Origin: a bacterium
GTDB lineage: Bacteria; Pseudomonadota; Alphaproteobacteria; Rhodobacterales; Rhodobacteraceae
Length of the DNA stretch: 64,000 nucleotides
Reading direction: 5' to 3'
Assembly: GCA_016124195.1 (NCBI GenBank)
Contig: WGOE01000008.1
Span: forward strand, 40,682-104,681
In this document: positions 3,963 to 64,000 of the stretch, piece by piece
Layout of the letters: the number at the start of each line of letters is the position of its first letter
How positions within the stretch are numbered: position 1 is the first letter of the stretch
Notes under the pieces: model-generated
Told to the model about the DNA's origin: nothing
The model's database searches: none
What the model saw: only the letters and a program-made list of their open reading frames with translations
Translations under genes and position numbers: made by a program

Positions 3963-4352
3963 TCGGCCTGCCCAAACCGTGGCCCTGTGAAAGAGGGTAT
4001 AACTTCTGCCATCGGGACGTCGTGCCCGCAGGCCATCCGGCCGGCGCTGAGGCGGCCGGGGCCCCGGCGACGATCGGGGTGCGGCGGCTTCACCACCATA
4101 TCGCCGCAGCCGAAAACCTTTGCCGCGGTCAGAAGACGCCCGACGCCTTGGCCCTGGTGGCGGCGGACACCACGTCCCTTTGGCAGGCCACGGAAACCGA
4201 ACTTCCGAACCTCGGCCTGCTGATCCGACCGGCCTCGCGCAAGCCGGGTGCCGGGCGGCGCCCCAGATGTGCGGGTTGGAAATTGGCGGCAACCTTGAAC
4301 CCGTCGCCAGATCCCGGGCAATTCGGTTCAGCCCTGCTTCCGCACCCGCCGG

Positions 4353-58014: not shown

Positions 58015-58067
<53 letters not shown>

Positions 58068-58089
<22 letters not shown>

Positions 58090-58358
58090 TCACTCACATC
58101 ACGCAGTTTCCGCATATTGTTTCGATACGCTGTATCGTCGCGTCGCATGTGGTCGATCAGTGGCCACATTATATTTGAGATGAATCTGAGGTTTGCAGTC
58201 AGGTCCGGGTGCAAGTCCGCCAAATAGTCCTTACTTTTGGCCAGATTGACACCCTTCTGGACTTTGTGTTGAACCCCGTACATCGCCAGAGTAGCCTCCC
58301 AAACGAGGTCGAGAATTTTCTCAGATTTCGCAATTTGGCGTTTCGTTGGTTTCTTCAT
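58068..58358 (-). CDS. hypothetical protein (96 aa, Lys-rich)
   Basis: AT-richer ORF MKKPTKRQIAKSEKILDL.... Its last 7 codons and stop lie antisense inside the tRNA 3' end (58068-58089). Confidence 0.5.
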
Positions 58359-58476
58359 CGGTCTGGCCCTCCTTGGCCCAAGGGGTGCAGCGTGATTGCC
58401 GCGACCTCATGGGCCAGTGGTGCCATCGGATGCCCCATCATGATACGAGGGCTAGACCGCTAAAAAGCCAGCCCGA

Positions 58477-58842
58477 CTAAAGGAAAGCGTTCCTGTACCG
58501 CTTGCGGATCGCCTTAGCATCCTCCATCAACTGCAACCGATAGCGATCCTCGTCGGTCAGCTCACCGGCTGGCTGGGCAGGTTCATCGCCCAAATGGGGC
58601 GCGGTGGGCGCGGGTGAGCTGCCGCGATGCTGGTTCAGACGAATCAGCCCCGTGTTGCGGTCGAGGCGCAGGCGCTTGTCGCCCTTCTTGTGGCGGGCAT
58701 ACCAGATATTGGCGACCACCTTCTTGCGGTCGAGGCCAATCAGCTCTGCGACCTCTTGAGTGGTGCGTGGGCCGGTAGAGACAGCGGCGATGATCGCCGC
58801 TGTCTCTGTCGCGAATTGGTTTCGGTCAGTATAGCCGTTCAA
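58477..58842 (-). CDS. hypothetical protein with wHTH-like segment
   Basis: TTQEVAELIGLDRKKVVANIWYARHKK looks like a helix-turn-helix. A TTG start at 58842 overlaps the upstream stop (TTGA). The longest ORF would start at 58893. Confidence 0.45.
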   Translation of the reverse strand: MNGYTDRNQFATETAAIIAAVSTGPRTTQEVAELIGLDRKKVVANIWYARHKKGDKRLRLDRNTGLIRLNQHRGSSPAPTAPHLGDEPAQPAGELTDEDRYRLQLMEDAKAIRKRYRNAFL

Positions 58843-58985
58843 GGAAGAACCCCCAGGATCAGGATCAGCAGGGCCGGGGCGAGGTGAACCCACAGCAGAA
58901 CGCGCAGGACGCGGCGCAGTAGCCGCCTCTTTGGCTTGGGCGGGGTGTTAGCCTCCGGCAGGTGGATGACGTTGCTCTGGGTCAT
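58839..58985 (-). CDS. small membrane protein (48 aa)
   Basis: MTQSNVIHLPEANTPPKPKRRLLRRVLRVLLWVHLAPALLILILGVLP has a basic stretch followed by one TM helix. ATGA overlap with the upstream ORF. Confidence 0.4.
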   Translation of the reverse strand: MTQSNVIHLPEANTPPKPKRRLLRRVLRVLLWVHLAPALLILILGVLP

Positions 58986-59188
58986 TCGGCAGGCACCTTC
59001 TGGGCTTTGCGGGTCAACCGCTGCACCAGCGCCTCGAAGTCGGCAGAGGCGAAGTGGTAGCGGTGGACGCGCATGTCTGGGGTTAGGACGAGGACCGGCA
59101 GAGGCGGGGGCTTTGCTGCCCAAGGGGAGGCGGGGCGCGGGATGGTGGAGCGGTGGCTGTTGGTGACGCGGCGGGGGATGACCTTCAT
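58982..59188 (-). CDS. hypothetical protein (68 aa, Pro-rich)
   Basis: ATG 59188 with AGAGG 7 nt upstream. The longer 113-aa version in the track has no better support. Confidence 0.35.
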   Translation of the reverse strand: MKVIPRRVTNSHRSTIPRPASPWAAKPPPLPVLVLTPDMRVHRYHFASADFEALVQRLTRKAQKVPAE

Positions 59189-59269
59189 GGATGACCTCTG
59201 AGTTGTGTTCTGCATCTGTTCTGAGGTCTTCGGCAGGCTGGGGAGCAGGGCAACAAGAAATGGCAGGCC

Positions 59270-59291
59270 GGGGATGATGGAGAGCATCCCC
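59270..59291 (-). terminator. hairpin downstream of the 277-aa gene
   Basis: GGGGATG (59270-76) pairs with CATCCCC (59285-91) around an 8-nt loop. Only a weak T-rich tail on the minus strand. Confidence 0.3.
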
Positions 59292-59342
59292 GACCCTAAG
59301 ACGCGATGGTGGTCAGCCTCCACCCCGCACCTATTCTGTGCA

Positions 59343-60176
59343 TCAGGGCTTTTTCAGCTTCTGCAGATTGCTCAGCGTCTTTTTGGCCTGCGATTTGGCG
59401 TTCATGCGCATGCTGGCGGCGATCTCGTTGCGCTTGCCGATCTGGTGCTGCCAAGCGGCCAGAATGCCCTCAATCTCATTGACCATCACCGAATGCTGCG
59501 CATCAAAGCCAGCGGAGTAGCGCTTTGCGGCTTCACGACGCAGAAGATCGAAGGATGCAGCATCAAGGCCGGTCAGGTATGCCGGTTTCGACAACACCGC
59601 CTGCACAAGCTGCTGGTCGTTGCCGTCGTTCATCTGCTGCCGGATGAAGCCCAGCCGTTCCATGGGCTTTGAGAAGTTGCCCAAAAGGAAAGCGCGCAGC
59701 TCGGCCTGATCCGCATGGGGCTTGGCACCCCGGAACACATCGTCGGAAATCTTCTTGCACAGCAGCGACGTGGTGCCTTCAAAGTTCTTGCGGACATGGA
59801 CGAAACTCGACTGCACATCTTTGACAAGTTCATCGGATGTGTCGGCGTATTCGTCATAGATGGTGCTGTAGACTTTTAGCCGACCATTCAGCATCCGCAG
59901 GTCACCGAAAAACTCGTCGGGGCCGTTGGTGTTCTGGCGGCGGCGGGCTTGGTTGATGTTCTCTTTGTCAAACTCGCCCAAGTCGGTTAGCGCCGACCCC
60001 AGCGCGTGAAAAACCGTAGCGGTGTTGCTCAGCTCGCGCTGCAGCATCGCATAGAACGGCTGGCCGGGGGTATCCGGCACGTCAAGGTGATCTGCGAACC
60101 GGCCCAGCGCTTTGGGGTGCAGGGTCGGGCTGACGTGCTGGCTAACGTCGGTGTTCGGATCGAAGGGCATGGTCAA
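59343..60176 (-). CDS. hypothetical protein (277 aa), orphan
   Basis: Clean ORF with lower GC than the host genes and an ATGA overlap with the terL stop. No catalytic or structural motif recognised. Confidence 0.65.
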   Translation of the reverse strand: MTMPFDPNTDVSQHVSPTLHPKALGRFADHLDVPDTPGQPFYAMLQRELSNTATVFHALGSALTDLGEFDKENINQARRRQNTNGPDEFFGDLRMLNGRLKVYSTIYDEYADTSDELVKDVQSSFVHVRKNFEGTTSLLCKKISDDVFRGAKPHADQAELRAFLLGNFSKPMERLGFIRQQMNDGNDQQLVQAVLSKPAYLTGLDAASFDLLRREAAKRYSAGFDAQHSVMVNEIEGILAAWQHQIGKRNEIAASMRMNAKSQAKKTLSNLQKLKKP

Positions 60177-61573
60177 TAATCTCCTATGGTGCGGCCAGTT
60201 TTGCCGATTGCGGTTTTGAAGTGCCGGATGCCGTACCCGGCAGCGTCCAGCGCGTGGTCCTCAGACCAGCGGTGGTCGAGGTCTTCGGGGTTCAGCGGCC
60301 CGCGTGGGGCTTCGGGCAAGGTGGTGGCGAGGTAGCGACAGGCCGGGGTCAGGTAGAGGCCGGGGCCATCGCCGGTCACAGCGCAGGACAAGAGCTGGCG
60401 CATCAGTGCCCAAGTGCCGCGCCGGTCCTTGCGGAAAGGCTTGGTGGCTGGCACCCCTGCCTCGCGCAAAAGCTGGATCACGGTTTCGGATTGCAGCCCT
60501 TTGGCATCATCCTGGACCACTTGCGGGCAATTGCGCAGACCGTTGCGCTTGGCCATTTCCTTGATCATATCCGCCCAAGCGACAGGCGGCGCTCCGGTGC
60601 CGACCGACAGGTCGTCCCAGCTTGCCAGCGTCGAGGTTTCGTCAAGCGCGATGATGGTGCCCACCGGAAGGCGGAAGCCTTGCGGATGGGACGGGGTGAA
60701 ATAGCTGATCGGGTTGCGCAACTGCCCAAAGAGGATCGCCACCGATGGGCTTGCCGTTCCCCAGTCCGCGCCGATGACATAGCGGTAGTTCGCGCGCATC
60801 GCAGGCGGGGCCACGGGCAGCATGTGGGTGGCCGGGTCGTAGGCGTCGAACATGTTGCCGCCGAAGCTGGTCCACGTCCCGGCCAGCCATGCGTCCAGCA
60901 GCGCCGTGTTGCCATCGGTCGAGGCCCGAAGCTGGGCCGCGTATTGGTCGCGGTCGAGGTGTGGGTTCTGTTGCAGGTTAGAGCTGACCCAGACCCAGAG
61001 CTGGCCGTGTTCGTCGGTCCACGGCACCCACGGCGCGGATCGGTTCACGAAGGTCTTGAGAACCTTGCTGTGGCTTTTGCCACCGGGGTTTCCAGTGATA
61101 TGCACATGGGCGCGGCGACCGGGTGGCACCCGAAGGTTGGATCGAGACCGCATCATGAAAGCCCAAGCGGTCGGGCTGTAGTTGCCTGCCTCGTCGGCGT
61201 AGAGTGCGGTGAAAGTCCGCCCCTGCAGCTTGGCGTAGGACGCCTCATCCCCGATGTTGGTAAACTGGATCACCGCCCCGTTCGGGCAGGTCAGCGTCAT
61301 GTCCGATTTGTTGCGCTGCACCGAACCGAATGCGGCGATGCACAGCTCGTAGGCTTCGTTGAACAGCTCCAACAGGCCCGCGTGGCTTTCGCGCATGACG
61401 AGCGGGCGAGCGGTCGCGGCGAAGTCGGATGTGTGCGACAGCACGTCAAAGAGCAAGCTGACAGACTTGCCCGACCCGCGACCGCCAAGGTTGGCGATGT
61501 TGCACGTTCCCCGGAACGCCAGCACGGCTTTCTGGAAGTCGGTCGGTTCGATGGTGGTATCGGATACAAGCAT
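60173..61573 (-). CDS. phage terminase large subunit (PBSX/Terminase_3-6-like)
   Basis: 466 aa. Walker A GGRGSGKS, Walker B ALYADEAG, and a C-terminal nuclease-like half. Confidence 0.85.
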   Translation of the reverse strand: MLVSDTTIEPTDFQKAVLAFRGTCNIANLGGRGSGKSVSLLFDVLSHTSDFAATARPLVMRESHAGLLELFNEAYELCIAAFGSVQRNKSDMTLTCPNGAVIQFTNIGDEASYAKLQGRTFTALYADEAGNYSPTAWAFMMRSRSNLRVPPGRRAHVHITGNPGGKSHSKVLKTFVNRSAPWVPWTDEHGQLWVWVSSNLQQNPHLDRDQYAAQLRASTDGNTALLDAWLAGTWTSFGGNMFDAYDPATHMLPVAPPAMRANYRYVIGADWGTASPSVAILFGQLRNPISYFTPSHPQGFRLPVGTIIALDETSTLASWDDLSVGTGAPPVAWADMIKEMAKRNGLRNCPQVVQDDAKGLQSETVIQLLREAGVPATKPFRKDRRGTWALMRQLLSCAVTGDGPGLYLTPACRYLATTLPEAPRGPLNPEDLDHRWSEDHALDAAGYGIRHFKTAIGKTGRTIGDY

Positions 61574-61576
61574 TGG

Positions 61577-61852
61577 TCAGCCTCGCGGGTCCGGCCCAAG
61601 GTAGAGAGGCCAAGGGTAGTCGGCGGGGATATCCTCTGGCTCGATCAGCGGGTGGTTGTTGGCGAGGGTCGGGGAACCGTCTGCGTCGGTGCCACCGGTG
61701 AATTTCGCGGTGCCACGGATCAGGAACCGACCGGTCAGTTCTTCACCTGTGGCAGCGTTCCGCCCGATTGAGAGCAAGTGGAAGGTGCCCATGTCGCCGG
61801 GGGCGAACAGGTAGGGGTCGTCGTTCTCGTCAAGCTGGACTTGGAAGGTCAT
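61577..61852 (-). CDS. hypothetical protein (91 aa)
   Basis: Sits between the TerS-like and TerL genes. ATGA overlap with the upstream gene; ends 3 nt before terL. Confidence 0.5.
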   Translation of the reverse strand: MTFQVQLDENDDPYLFAPGDMGTFHLLSIGRNAATGEELTGRFLIRGTAKFTGGTDADGSPTLANNHPLIEPEDIPADYPWPLYLGPDPRG

Positions 61853-62346
61853 ACGAACAGAGCCTTTCGGTTGGCCGGTCGCCCAAAGGGTGCGGGTTCA
61901 GGCGTTGCTGGCTGGGGGGTGATGTCGCGCATCGCAGCGGTGAGCTTTGCCAGCTCGTCGGCGGTGGCAGCGGGCGGGATGAGGATGTTGACTGTTCGCT
62001 GGTCGGGCGCGGCGACAGGGGTGTTCTCGCGGTAGCCGTGGGCTGACTTCAGAAGGAACATGGCGGCGGGCGCGTAGCCGTCGCGGGCTTGCTGCATCAG
62101 CAGGCCGACCAACTCGTCGTGCATGGCGGCGTTGCCCTCACCATAGGCGTCAGCCAGTGCCTCGTCGCGCTCCAGCACATCCTTGAAGGTCGAAGCAGGC
62201 ATGCCGAGTGCGGCGGCGATGGACGCCTTGGCGCAGCCATTGGCCCGCATAGAGCGCACCATCGGATAGGCGTCGGCGTGTACGGTCCATGCCCCGCTCT
62301 TGCCACGGGCCTTGGTCGCGAAGGGGATGATGGTTTTCTTGCTCAT
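61849..62346 (-). CDS. terminase small subunit-like HTH protein
   Basis: Start ATG 62346 (MSKKTIIPF). HTH CAKASIAAALGMPASTFKDVLERDEAL, then AAMFLLKSAHGYRE, which resembles the conserved C-terminal motif of small terminases. Positioned directly upstream of terL. Confidence 0.55.
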   Translation of the reverse strand: MSKKTIIPFATKARGKSGAWTVHADAYPMVRSMRANGCAKASIAAALGMPASTFKDVLERDEALADAYGEGNAAMHDELVGLLMQQARDGYAPAAMFLLKSAHGYRENTPVAAPDQRTVNILIPPAATADELAKLTAAMRDITPQPATPEPAPFGRPANRKALFV

Positions 62347-62493
62347 GGGACTGTCATGTCCCGGTTCACCACAGCTGAAAACGAGGGCTAAACCGTCAGT
62401 TTCGGGCTTGGCGCACCCCAGTAGAATGCCCAGTGGTAGTGGTGCAGGGAATATGCCTGCAAACATGGGGCGAGTTGTGGTGGGGCTTACCCT

Positions 62494-62526
62494 TAGAAAG
62501 AAAAGGCCCCACCAAAGCGGGGCCTT
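62494..62526 (-). terminator. intrinsic terminator (minus strand) closing the noncoding block
   Basis: Minus strand reads AAGGCCCC-GCTTTGGT-GGGGCCTT followed by TTCTTTCT. Confidence 0.6.
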
Positions 62527-62535
62527 CTCAATGCG

Positions 62536-63022
62536 CGACTACGACTAGCAGAACCCCCGTCCTGCAGGTTGTAGGATAGGTGCCGGGGTGGTGGCGGACA
62601 ATCAACAACGCCTCAGAATAGGTCCGTTTCGGTCCTTTTTGAGAGGTCCGCCGGCTGGAGGACGTGAAAGTTTACTGTTTCACTTAGGAATACCCCGATT
62701 TGGCCCTACACTTCCCCCTCGCTGGTGGCACCCCCTCCCACAAGCCCAAGGGGGTTGCGGTTTCCGCGTGCATTTACAGGCGCTTACTCACCACACCTCC
62801 CTACACTCCCTTCTTTTAGTAACAGAGAAGAAGAGTAGAGGACCGACCCCTACCCCCTTGGGCCTACCTCTACTACCTCTATAGAGGAACCGCCCAGTGG
62901 CGGGGGGTTGGGGAGGTGCCGACCCGTAACCCGTTGTTCCCGCACACAAACGAGAGGCCCAAGGGGAGGTGTGCGGGGCGATGGGGTGGAAGTGGCAGGC
63001 AGGTGTTCCGCCCGAAACCGCC
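62536..63022 (-). other. repeat-rich noncoding block: candidate replication origin or structured RNA
   Basis: No ORF of 60 aa or more on the gene strand. Contains GGTCC x3, CCCTACACT x2, GCCCAAGGGG x3 (one inverted), the palindrome CCTCTATAGAGG, AT-richer patches, and two 10-11-nt long-range complementarities. Confidence 0.4.
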
Positions 63023-64000
63023 TTAAAACGGGATTTCCGCGTCCGGGATTTGTGGCTGCACGACGATCATGGTCCCGTCTTTGGTCCGCGCAATGTCAAG
63101 CTCGCACCCGCGCTGCACCTGATCGCCCCGCACATAGCACCATTGCTGCGACCCGTTGTGCCGGAGCTGTTTGCGCTCCCAGCCCAGCGCTTTCGCCGCT
63201 TGGCCGATCAGCGTCATGTGGTGCTGGGTCTTCGGCACCCCAAACAGGTCGTAGCACAGGCCGACTGGCAAGCGGCCATAGGCCGACCCCAGCTTCTGCG
63301 CAAACACCCCGTCTAGCGGGTTCTCCTCTTGGCGAGACGCCTGTTCGGTGGCTGCAGCGCCCCACAGGCTACGGTCCAGCCGGATAGCTTCCCCAGCGGC
63401 TTCTGCCACACACGCCTCGGCCCAAAACTGGTCCCGATGCTGGGCAATGCCATCAAGATTGATAACCCCGCACAGCACCGGCCAATAGCGGCGGTTGCCG
63501 GTTGGGTCTTTGAGATACTTGTCGCCATTGGTGGTTCCGACCACGACAAATTCTCGGTCTTTGTGCATTGTCATCCGGCCATATGCCATGCGGCCTTCGT
63601 CAAAGCAGCGCGACAGCATGGATTTAAGGTGCTCGGCATTCTTGTTGCTTTGGCCGACCATCTCGGCGGCTTCTACGATCCATTTGCCTGCGGTGGCCTC
63701 AATCACACGCTTGCCATCAGCGCCCAAAGGCAGGTCGTCGGAGAACCAATCGGGGTTGACCGCCAGCGTTCGCAGCAGTGTCGATTTACCCCCACCTTGC
63801 GCTCCTTCCAGCACCACCATTTCGTCAAACTTTGCGCCGGGGGTTCGGATGCGCCGAACAGCGGCGACCAACAGCAGGCGACCGACCGCGCGGGCATATG
63901 GGCTATCGGCCACCCCGCAAAAGTCGATCAGCCAGCGCCCAAGGCGAGGCACCCCGTCCCAGTGCAGGCTATCCAGATAATCAGCGACCGGGTGAAAACG
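63023..64000 (-). CDS. VapE/VirE-family primase-helicase-like protein (C-terminal part; ORF continues past the right edge)
   Basis: P-loop LEGAQGGGKST and Walker-B-like block FVVVGTTN. The frame stays open upstream of the track start (GTG 63952), reading FHPVADYLDSLHWDGVPRLGRWL up to position 64000. Confidence 0.85.
   Translation of the reverse strand, partial: RFHPVADYLDSLHWDGVPRLGRWLIDFCGVADSPYARAVGRLLLVAAVRRIRTPGAKFDEMVVLEGAQGGGKSTLLRTLAVNPDWFSDDLPLGADGKRVIEATAGKWIVEAAEMVGQSNKNAEHLKSMLSRCFDEGRMAYGRMTMHKDREFVVVGTTNGDKYLKDPTGNRRYWPVLCGVINLDGIAQHRDQFWAEACVAEAAGEAIRLDRSLWGAAATEQASRQEENPLDGVFAQKLGSAYGRLPVGLCYDLFGVPKTQHHMTLIGQAAKALGWERKQLRHNGSQQWCYVRGDQVQRGCELDIARTKDGTMIVVQPQIPDAEIPF

Follow-up and report, generated by a model that had tools for sequence, protein, structure and literature searches.

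A probable replication origin of the PICI/SaPI type in the noncoding block behind a VapE-like primase-helicase gene of a small rhodobacteral island

Directly behind the gene of a VapE-like primase-helicase (hereafter Rep), the Rhodobacteraceae contig WGOE01000008.1 (assembly GCA_016124195.1) carries a conspicuous noncoding block full of short repeats, which raises the question whether these repeats serve DNA replication or the folding of an RNA. We investigated the block within a stretch of 64,000 nt of this contig (the window, whose coordinates are used throughout). A first-pass annotation, made from the letters of the window alone, had delimited the block as 62536-63022 and offered two readings: an iteron origin as known from Staphylococcus aureus pathogenicity islands (SaPIs) and other phage-inducible chromosomal islands (PICIs), in which the origin lies 3' of the replicase gene, or a structured RNA of about 490 nt. 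Based on the homology of Rep, the agreement with the published definition of such origins and about fifteen related elements, the first of these readings is now supported: the block most probably is the vegetative replication origin, of PICI/SaPI type, of a PICI-like island of about 9.55 kb. It most likely adds a further example to a known kind of origin and is not a new RNA.

The block is noncoding as claimed, the longest minus-strand open reading frame (ORF) within it reaching 53 aa, in keeping with the annotated lack of any such frame of at least 60 aa; its extent had been drawn too short. The intergenic region between the Rep gene and the small-terminase gene spans 62347-63022 (676 nt), and the gene after the block most likely begins with the ATG at 62346, its 165-aa product being identical to the database protein P0001.

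Rep and the repeats directly behind it

The window ends within the rep gene, whose stop codon is the TAA at 63023-25; a public contig of 9,608 nt (L145), 100% identical to window positions 58032-64000, continues past the window end and gives the complete frame. Rep matches VapE-like_dom in Pfam (E 3e-63) and a DNA helicase/primase family in PHROGs, and its N-terminus, as read from L145, is of the RepB/PrimPol type. Its C-terminal 325 aa match the PDB entry 7PDS (phmmer, E 1.1e-33), which is the complex of SaPI1 Rep1 with DNA (PMC9371898). The C-terminal domain alone, used as homology query, retrieved a single protein, and the 325-aa query was used in its place. An AlphaFold (AF2) model of these 325 aa, built from 58 homologues, reached a mean predicted local distance difference test score (pLDDT) of 94.5 and presents the C-terminal domain as winged-helix-like, with the succession H-E-H-H-E-E. 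A Foldseek search of PDB with this model placed six 7pds chains on top (E 1.7e-20, TMq 0.72, about 350 columns), followed by other primase-helicases of the superfamily 3 (SF3) class. Judged from sequence and predicted fold, Rep is homologous to the Rep helicase of SaPIs, which loads itself onto DNA.

The Rep helicases of SaPIs are self-loading and recognise short iterons with their C-terminal winged helix, and SaPI origins hold 6-12 such iterons just downstream of rep, two or more to either side of an AT-rich centre and in opposed orientation (PMC9371898); the same organisation was found in PICIs of Gram-negative bacteria and shown to be functional by Fillol-Salom et al. (PMC6092414). The block under study has each of these properties. 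It lies directly 3' of the initiator ORF, as do its counterparts in more than 12 related loci; opposed sets of four iterons each surround an AT-rich core (Table 1); the initiator is an SF3 helicase ending, by sequence and model, in a winged-helix-like domain; and iterons specific to each element go together with the cognate Rep, the last point being a correlation only. The first iteron (edge at 63006) lies 17 nt past the rep stop codon and about 640 nt from the small-terminase gene terS.

The repeats listed in the first-pass annotation are all present, yet the set that belongs to Rep consists of 9-mers resembling ACACCTCCC, which had been noted merely under long-range complementarity and within CCCTACACT. 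Both copies of CCCTACACT (at 62704 and 62799, the only two in the window) belong to iterons e and h, the annotated pairing of CACACCTCCC (62792-801) with GGGAGGTGTG (62964-73) is that of iterons f and c, and the second such pairing (62744-54 with 62853-63) unites two boxes, 3 and 2, that are inverted to one another and are discussed below. Allowing for at most one mismatch, the 64-kb window holds eight copies of ACACCTCCC, of which five fall inside 62708-63006, and the whole island as present in L145 holds, outside the block, one stray copy with one mismatch. The first 360 nt past the stop codon contain 20 direct 7-mer pairs, compared with 7.5 +/- 3.8 in shuffled sequences (1 of 300 as high), and 30 inverted ones, compared with 9.8 +/- 4.0 (0 of 300). 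DnaA boxes (up to one mismatch) as well as IHF, CtrA, GANTC and GATC sites were searched for in 62347-63022 and none was found; the lack of DnaA, IHF and CtrA sites fits a self-loading initiator and sets the block apart from the DnaA-dependent iteron origins of plasmids, which carry DnaA boxes, and often IHF sites as well, beside their iterons.

Table 1 Putative functional elements of the block and its surroundings, ordered from the rep gene towards terS and the island edge
Feature	Position	Strand	Sequence and remarks
Rep gene, 3' part (PrimPol/VapE-like SF3 helicase)	63023..64000	-	325 codons plus stop; full gene 745 aa in L145
Rep-proximal iteron arm	62911..63006	-	four copies, gene orientation; conserved in L003, L146
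Iteron a	62998-63006	-	ACACCTGCC
Iteron b	62983-62994	-	CACTTCCACCCC, degenerate
Iteron c	62964-62972	-	ACACCTCCC
Family box 1	62957..62966	-	CCCCTTGGGC (GCCCAAGGGG on the plus strand); TTGGGC/TTGGCC similarly placed in L003, L005, L056, L061
Iteron d	62911-62919	-	GCACCTCCC
12-nt palindrome	62876..62887		CCTCTATAGAGG; retained in L003 except for one base, not retained in remoter relatives
Hairpin adjoining AT-rich core	62831..62875	-	arms GTAGAGG/CCTCTAC; dG -19.3
Family box 2	62853-62863	-	GCCCAAGGGGG, inside the hairpin
AT/CT-rich core	62811..62836		ACTCTTCTTCTCTGTTACTAAAAGAA, candidate DNA-unwinding site; 26 bp, 31% GC within 62% GC origin core
Rep-distal iteron arm	62708..62810	+	four copies, opposite orientation
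Iteron e	62802-62810	+	TACACTCCC
Iteron f	62793-62801	+	ACACCTCCC
Family box 3	62744..62754	-	CCCCCTTGGGC(TTG), inverted relative to box 2, 110 nt apart
Iteron g	62729-62739	+	CACCCCCTCCC, degenerate
Iteron h	62708-62716	+	ACACTTCCC
Conserved small box	62663..62671	-	ACTTTCAC; invariant in window, L003, L146; similar in L005, L007, L004
A5 box	62621..62644	+	gene strand TCTCAAAAAGGA; plus strand GGTCCGTTTCGGTCC-TTTTTGAG, weak hairpin plus T5
Intrinsic terminator, end of rep/ori transcription unit	62494..62529	-	GAGAAGGCCCCGCTTTGGTGGGGCCTTTTCTTTCTA; 13-bp GC hairpin plus T-tract, dG -20.6
Leader and presumed promoter region of small-terminase gene	62347..62493	-	identity to L003 drops to about 45-55%
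Small terminase subunit-like gene	61849..62346	-	165 aa; PHROG terminase small subunit, E 1.4e-5; homologues P0001-P0011
Island edge repeats	tRNA 58015-58086		GGATTGAACTC(T/C)CGACCTC..CCTTACCAA; direct repeats of tRNA 3' end

Upon induction, Rep hexamers would bind both iteron arms through their C-terminal domain and melt the AT-rich core, for which a host initiator would not be needed, and the N-terminal PrimPol domain would then prime synthesis; binding, melting and priming we infer from the homologous SaPI system. The host replisome would be recruited, possibly via the ...EIPF end of Rep, which resembles the tail of the single-stranded DNA-binding protein (SSB), and the replicated DNA would be packaged by the small and large terminase subunits of the island (TerS/TerL). 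What lies downstream of the presumed origin is best explained as the A5 box with its antisense terminator, followed by the terminator of the rep operon and by the terS leader.

The C-terminus of Rep deserves attention of its own. It reads PDAEIPF (63026-63043) and conforms to an acidic, SSB-tail-like ...(D/E)x(I/V)PF, which is found in both classes of Rep, also in L004, L008, L013, L056 and L061; among 120 VapE homologues, 14 end with PF, by far the commonest C-terminal dipeptide. The C-terminal tip of the SSB of Escherichia coli is DDDIPF. By its sequence, the Rep tail may mimic that of SSB and so recruit partners of the host replisome.

Related elements and known systems

Relatives were gathered via homologues of the TerS-like protein and of Rep. 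Several loci (L003, L004, L005, L007, L008, L013, L014, L056/57, L061, L137, L146 and L149) contain a primase-helicase gene of the VapE or DUF5906 type, a gap of 315-690 nt and terS, and they share one order, namely helicase stop codon, iterons, AT-rich centre, iterons, A5 box and TerS. L151 and the phage-like contigs L001 and L002 also have iterons directly 3' of vapE, and the layout of the block recurs in altogether about fifteen related elements, drawn from metagenomes and genomes, each with an iteron of its own. The GGTCC triplet, which the first-pass annotation had placed among the repeats, is not kept even in the closest relative, L003. Each gap has its own motif of 7-10 nt, repeated many times and usually in opposed orientations around a low-GC, TCTCT-rich centre (L004, L005, L008, L056, L061 and L137 have such a centre between their iteron arms): GGAGGGTT in L004, ACACCC(C) in L005 and L007, AAGTCGCTTC in L008, GTCATATC in L013, GGGAACG in L014 and L149, TCTGACGAT in L056, CGACTT in L061 and GGCTCACC in L137. 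In most relatives the enrichment of repeats is strong (z up to 12-19) and in most loci the gap is where the iteron copies cluster; their order and orientation vary between elements, L137 having direct repeats only (inverted z = -0.2).

Comparison of the C-terminal domains of Rep suggests how motif and initiator belong together. The window and L003 are 95% identical in this domain and share the same iteron; L005 and L007 (66%) share the ACACCC core, L008 and L061 (44%) the AAGTCG core, and the motifs of the window and L005 (54%) are related. The TerS of L004, on the other hand, is 70% identical to that of the window, while Rep class and iteron differ. At the level of sequence correlation only, the iteron motif thus tracks the C-terminal domain of Rep and not the identity of TerS, which is the pattern expected of initiator-specific iterons and not of a terminase site.

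With 80-94% identity between window and L003, the origin core is conserved to the same degree as the flanking genes. Using the window block as nhmmer query against 144 loci, L003 was the sole match, so that primary sequence outside the boxes is not conserved; a blastn comparison of the block with phage and plasmid collections gave no match, and a scan of viral contigs with the single TerS sequence gave no relatives. A conserved small ORF was considered and discarded: matches occur only between the window and L003, in several frames and on both strands, as the identity of the DNA predicts.

Three relatives show peculiarities. The rep gene of L003 contains an in-frame stop codon at 4298-4300 (...EQASR*EENPLEG, where the window has Q), which would delete the last 101 aa of Rep including the winged-helix domain, and L003 is either a decaying copy or the stop is a sequencing error. 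In L002 (5182-5550), an ORF of 122 aa resembling HNH endonucleases lies between the GTTACA iterons after vapE and a second iteron/AT-rich cluster and looks like an insertion into the origin. In L152 (5549-5740), the order int-AlpA-VapE is followed by a Ros/MucR gene, with just a terminator after rep.

Among known systems, the origins of SaPI1, SaPIbov1 and EcCICFT073 resemble the block most directly, being situated immediately 3' of rep or pri-rep and having opposed iterons around an AT-rich melting region, and the islands share an SF3 self-loading initiator, element-specific iterons and the genes and sites int, alpA, pri-rep, ori and terS (PMC9371898; PMC6092414). The present island differs from them in its iterons of 8-10 nt instead of 5-6 nt, in its GC-rich host with a core of just 26 bp and 31% GC, and in the additional presence of family-wide boxes (the GCCCAAGG pair and the A5 box) and a large terminase subunit.

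Satellite phage P4 is likewise integrative, and its initiator likewise unites primase, SF3 helicase and winged helix in one polypeptide. The alpha protein of P4 binds octamer iterons in both orientations, and P4 requires in cis, besides ori, a second iteron cluster, crr, at some distance from it. In contrast, the island has a single iteron cluster and one stray match elsewhere, a second, crr-like cluster being found nowhere in L145; the P4 primase is of the DnaG type, whereas the N-terminus of the island Rep is of the RepB/PrimPol type, and among the PDB matches the helicase core of the island stands nearer to the SaPI Rep than to other SF3 helicases. P4 alpha joins primase and SF3 helicase to a winged-helix domain at its C-terminus that binds the origin, and ORF904 of plasmid pRN1 consists of PrimPol, SF3 helicase and winged helix (PMC2777425). 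The cis region essential to pRN1 adjoins the replication gene at its 3' end (PMC2777425; PMC4234260), and no iterons could be identified in this plasmid (PMC2777425). Unlike the island, pRN1 is a plasmid of an archaeon, thus from another domain of life, and is not integrative.

Weighing the proposed origin against other explanations

Several observations weigh against the block being a PICI/SaPI-type origin. The iterons, at 8-10 nt, are longer than the 5-6 nt of SaPI iterons, and the GCCCAAGG pair, the A5 box and ACTTTCA are absent from the published description of PICI origins. The copy number of the best 8-mer of the window block (7) stays within the range of shuffled sequences, although it exceeds that range in L004, L005 and L008, and this count was replaced by the pair-count and clustering tests. 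Direct-repeat counts equal to that of the block are found at other sites of the island. The case for the window rests on clustering, arrangement and comparison, and of its eight iteron copies b and g are degenerate. Treated as RNA, the inverted repeats give pairing and covariation counts above those of shuffled sequences. Finally, the VapE relative L152 is without iterons after rep, so that the arrangement is not universal.

The repeats might alternatively be a pac or cos packaging site for the TerS and TerL of the island, an explanation that we regard as improbable. Many phages keep cos or pac directly upstream of terS, which is the position of the block, and as all loci were retrieved by homology to TerS, a site linked to TerS would recur among them too; the GCCCAAGG pair and the A5 box are, moreover, independent of Rep class. 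The iteron type, however, follows the C-terminal domain of Rep even where TerS is as similar as between the window and L004. In L151 iterons directly follow vapE with no recognisable TerS homologue downstream, and in the window the first iteron adjoins rep and is distant from terS. Upstream of genes of the TerS family that have no helicase gene in front of them, the conserved boxes occur at background level (5 of 90, compared with 7-8 of 14), and the boxes therefore belong to the rep-ori module and not to terS as such. A pac or cos site might still lie in another part of this intergenic region.

Slightly lower still we rate the probability of a structured RNA of about 0.5 kb. Such an RNA, its helices made by the long-range complementarities, would be the 3' untranslated region (UTR) of the rep transcript or be processed from it with an end at 62494-62529, and it would regulate replication or packaging. 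The annotated intrinsic terminator on the minus strand is real (a simple scanner had missed it, its stem extending into the T-tract) and a counterpart with another sequence lies at the same position in L003. The block is placed between the rep stop codon and this sole strong minus-strand terminator, and it is therefore probably transcribed as the 3' UTR of rep. The z-scores of the minimum free energy are -3.1 for the minus strand and -3.9 for the plus strand; the RNAalifold structure of a four-sequence alignment (window, L003, L005 and L007) has 88% paired cells; 15 pairs are altered on both sides, as against 9.0 +/- 2.0 in shuffled alignments and 2-6 in slid controls; and the hairpin beside the core, with both arms changed, still pairs in L146. 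In size, in location on a mobile element and in its negative folding z-score, the block resembles large structured noncoding RNAs known from phages and prophages, such as ROOL and GOLLD, and other RNAs of Rfam.

It differs from these RNAs in having no Rfam match, in being a multi-copy repeat and not a specific fold, and in showing no clear preference for either strand. A scan against Rfam 15 (4227 models), at gathering or relaxed thresholds, returned nothing besides sub-threshold terminator look-alikes at 62494-62585, weakly similar to terminators of small RNAs. The predicted helices are formed by inverted copies of the iteron and by the invariant GCCCAA/TTGGGC box. Since the copies of an arm are all alike in sequence, each left copy can pair with every right one, a promiscuity which is predicted by a protein-binding repeat and not by a specific RNA fold; direct repeats are enriched too, L137 has direct repeats only, and the order and orientation of the copies differ among elements. 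The strands are not clearly separable, with similar z-scores and alifold energies of -39.8 versus -29.8 and -95.3 versus -92.9. The covariation term is near zero or positive (-0.69 on window, L003, L005 and L007; unfavourable with three closer relatives), and nhmmer retrieves the closest relative only. It should also be noted that the structure was derived from the same alignment, and the pair-count signal must be regarded as the expected outcome of concerted change of the iterons. Covariation was thus found in so far as the pair counts exceed those of shuffled alignments, but it is inseparable from the co-evolution of inverted iterons, the comparison of strands being not decisive, and the alternative of an RNA of about 490 nt found no support.

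A transcriptional control region between an early (rep) and a late (terminase) module, with operator repeats, terminators and an antisense small RNA, is the least probable of these explanations: it could draw on the minus-strand terminator with its positional equivalent in L003, on the strand-specific A5 box, which reads as a reverse-strand terminator in many loci, and on the terS leader after the block, yet it covers 62347-62700 and not the four plus four opposed repeats around the AT-rich core beside rep, no sigma-70-like promoter was found in the region, and the repeats co-vary with Rep and not with AlpA or the other regulators examined. Such a role is compatible with the PICI/SaPI-type origin as an added function, not as its replacement.

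The island, its conserved boxes and their meaning

The putative origin belongs to an island of about 9.55 kb, which extends from 58015 to beyond 64000 and whose edges are direct repeats of the 3' end of a tRNA gene. In L145 the gene order is integrase, a 201-aa ORF, AlpA, a 745-aa fusion of RepB-primase and VapE, the noncoding block, the TerS-like protein of 165 aa, an ORF of 91 aa, the TerL-like protein of 466 aa (PHROG match, E 2e-22), an ORF of 275 aa and four small ORFs. PICIs span about 10-15 kb, occupy a specific att site and carry int, alpA, pri-rep and ori, in some cases also terS, but no structural or lysis genes of phages. The present element has repeats of the tRNA 3' end as its boundaries and carries int, AlpA, PrimPol-VapE and TerS; by its sequence it is a small, tRNA-integrated island of a PICI-like, satellite-like kind. 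The TerL-like gene is unusual in comparison with classical PICIs; capsid, portal, tail and lysis genes gave no match in the island in Pfam and PHROGs, and it is uncommon among satellites to encode TerS-like and TerL-like proteins while lacking recognisable genes for capsid, portal and tail. The product of the ORF after TerL (59343-60176, minus strand) has no match in Pfam or PHROGs; by position, proteins of 241-283 aa also follow TerL in the islands L003, L004, L007, L008 and L149. Near the tRNA end, a region of small ORFs (about 58880-59360, corresponding to L145 8281-8760) shows a strong positive GC skew of up to 0.34 and is the part of the island richest in direct 7-mer repeats, with up to 40 pairs per 360 nt.

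Several repeats of the first-pass annotation, all found at the places given, turned out to be something other than iterons. The motif GCCCAAGGGG, present at 62744, again at 62957 and as its complement at 62854, was rejected as a Rep iteron, being conserved across elements with different iterons and Rep classes. It is part of an inverted pair, GCCCAAGG(rGG) and CCTTGGGC(TTG), 110-140 bp apart, which encloses the melting region and is conserved whatever the type of iteron or class of Rep; in the window, boxes 2 and 3 enclose the AT-rich core and the inner iterons, and a GCCCAA...TTGGGC pair at distances of 112-141 bp is present in L003, L005, L014, L056, L061 and L137. Between the window and L003 the flanks of the GCCCAAGG pair change complementarily. 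The 8-mer CCTTGGGC occurs 15 times in the window, where 5.1 copies are expected, and the island part (58.3-64 kb) accounts for seven of them. The arms GTAGAGG (62835-41) and CCTCTAC (62867-73) form the hairpin beside the core, which is conserved in L003 and appears in L146 with arms GTGGAG/CTCCAC, both sides being altered. The palindrome CCTCTATAGAGG is perfect as described; perfect 12-nt palindromes are common in the window (34, compared with about 27 in shuffled sequences), and this one probably is incidental or lineage-specific.

The copies of GGTCC at 62621, 62631 and 62645 are the sole GGTCC triplet within 30 nt in the window. As iterons they were rejected, not being conserved in L003 and supplying with two copies the arms of a hairpin before a run of T5: on the reverse strand, the A5 box of the window reads like a terminator, GGTCCGTTTCGGTCC-TTTTTG (62621-62641), with two of the three GGTCC as arms. 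The density of the A5 box, YAAAAAGR, is 1.86 per kb within the gaps, as against 0.15 per kb outside them, and its orientation is forward 13 times and reverse once. In most loci a GC hairpin adjoins it, and the opposite strand therefore reads a hairpin plus T5, that is, an intrinsic terminator.

The candidate roles of these boxes are the binding of a host or island factor, the start of packaging and the insulation from antisense transcription. We consider it possible, though unlikely, that the inverted GCCCAAGG/CCTTGGGC pair, the hairpin and YAAAAAGR constitute a second cis-module, independent of Rep class and common to islands with unrelated Rep types (VapE or DUF5906), which would be the site where the TerS-TerL terminase of the island recognises the DNA or starts on it, or else would mark the end of an antisense RNA or be part of a structured transcript. 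If true, this second module would couple replication to packaging in an undescribed family of satellites with a complete terminase and no capsid genes.

The reading of the block as a PICI/SaPI-type origin would assign a function to a conspicuous noncoding block of 0.5-0.7 kb and extend the architecture of PICI and SaPI origins to small islands of GC-rich, Alphaproteobacteria-like genomes and of environmental metagenomes. The related origins, in which one scaffold carries swapped Rep classes and matching iterons, would be a natural data set for the evolution of initiator specificity, and the rep-ori cassettes of these islands are potential small replicons. The conserved boxes, together with a gene content in which terminase stands alone, are the parts that could bring something new.

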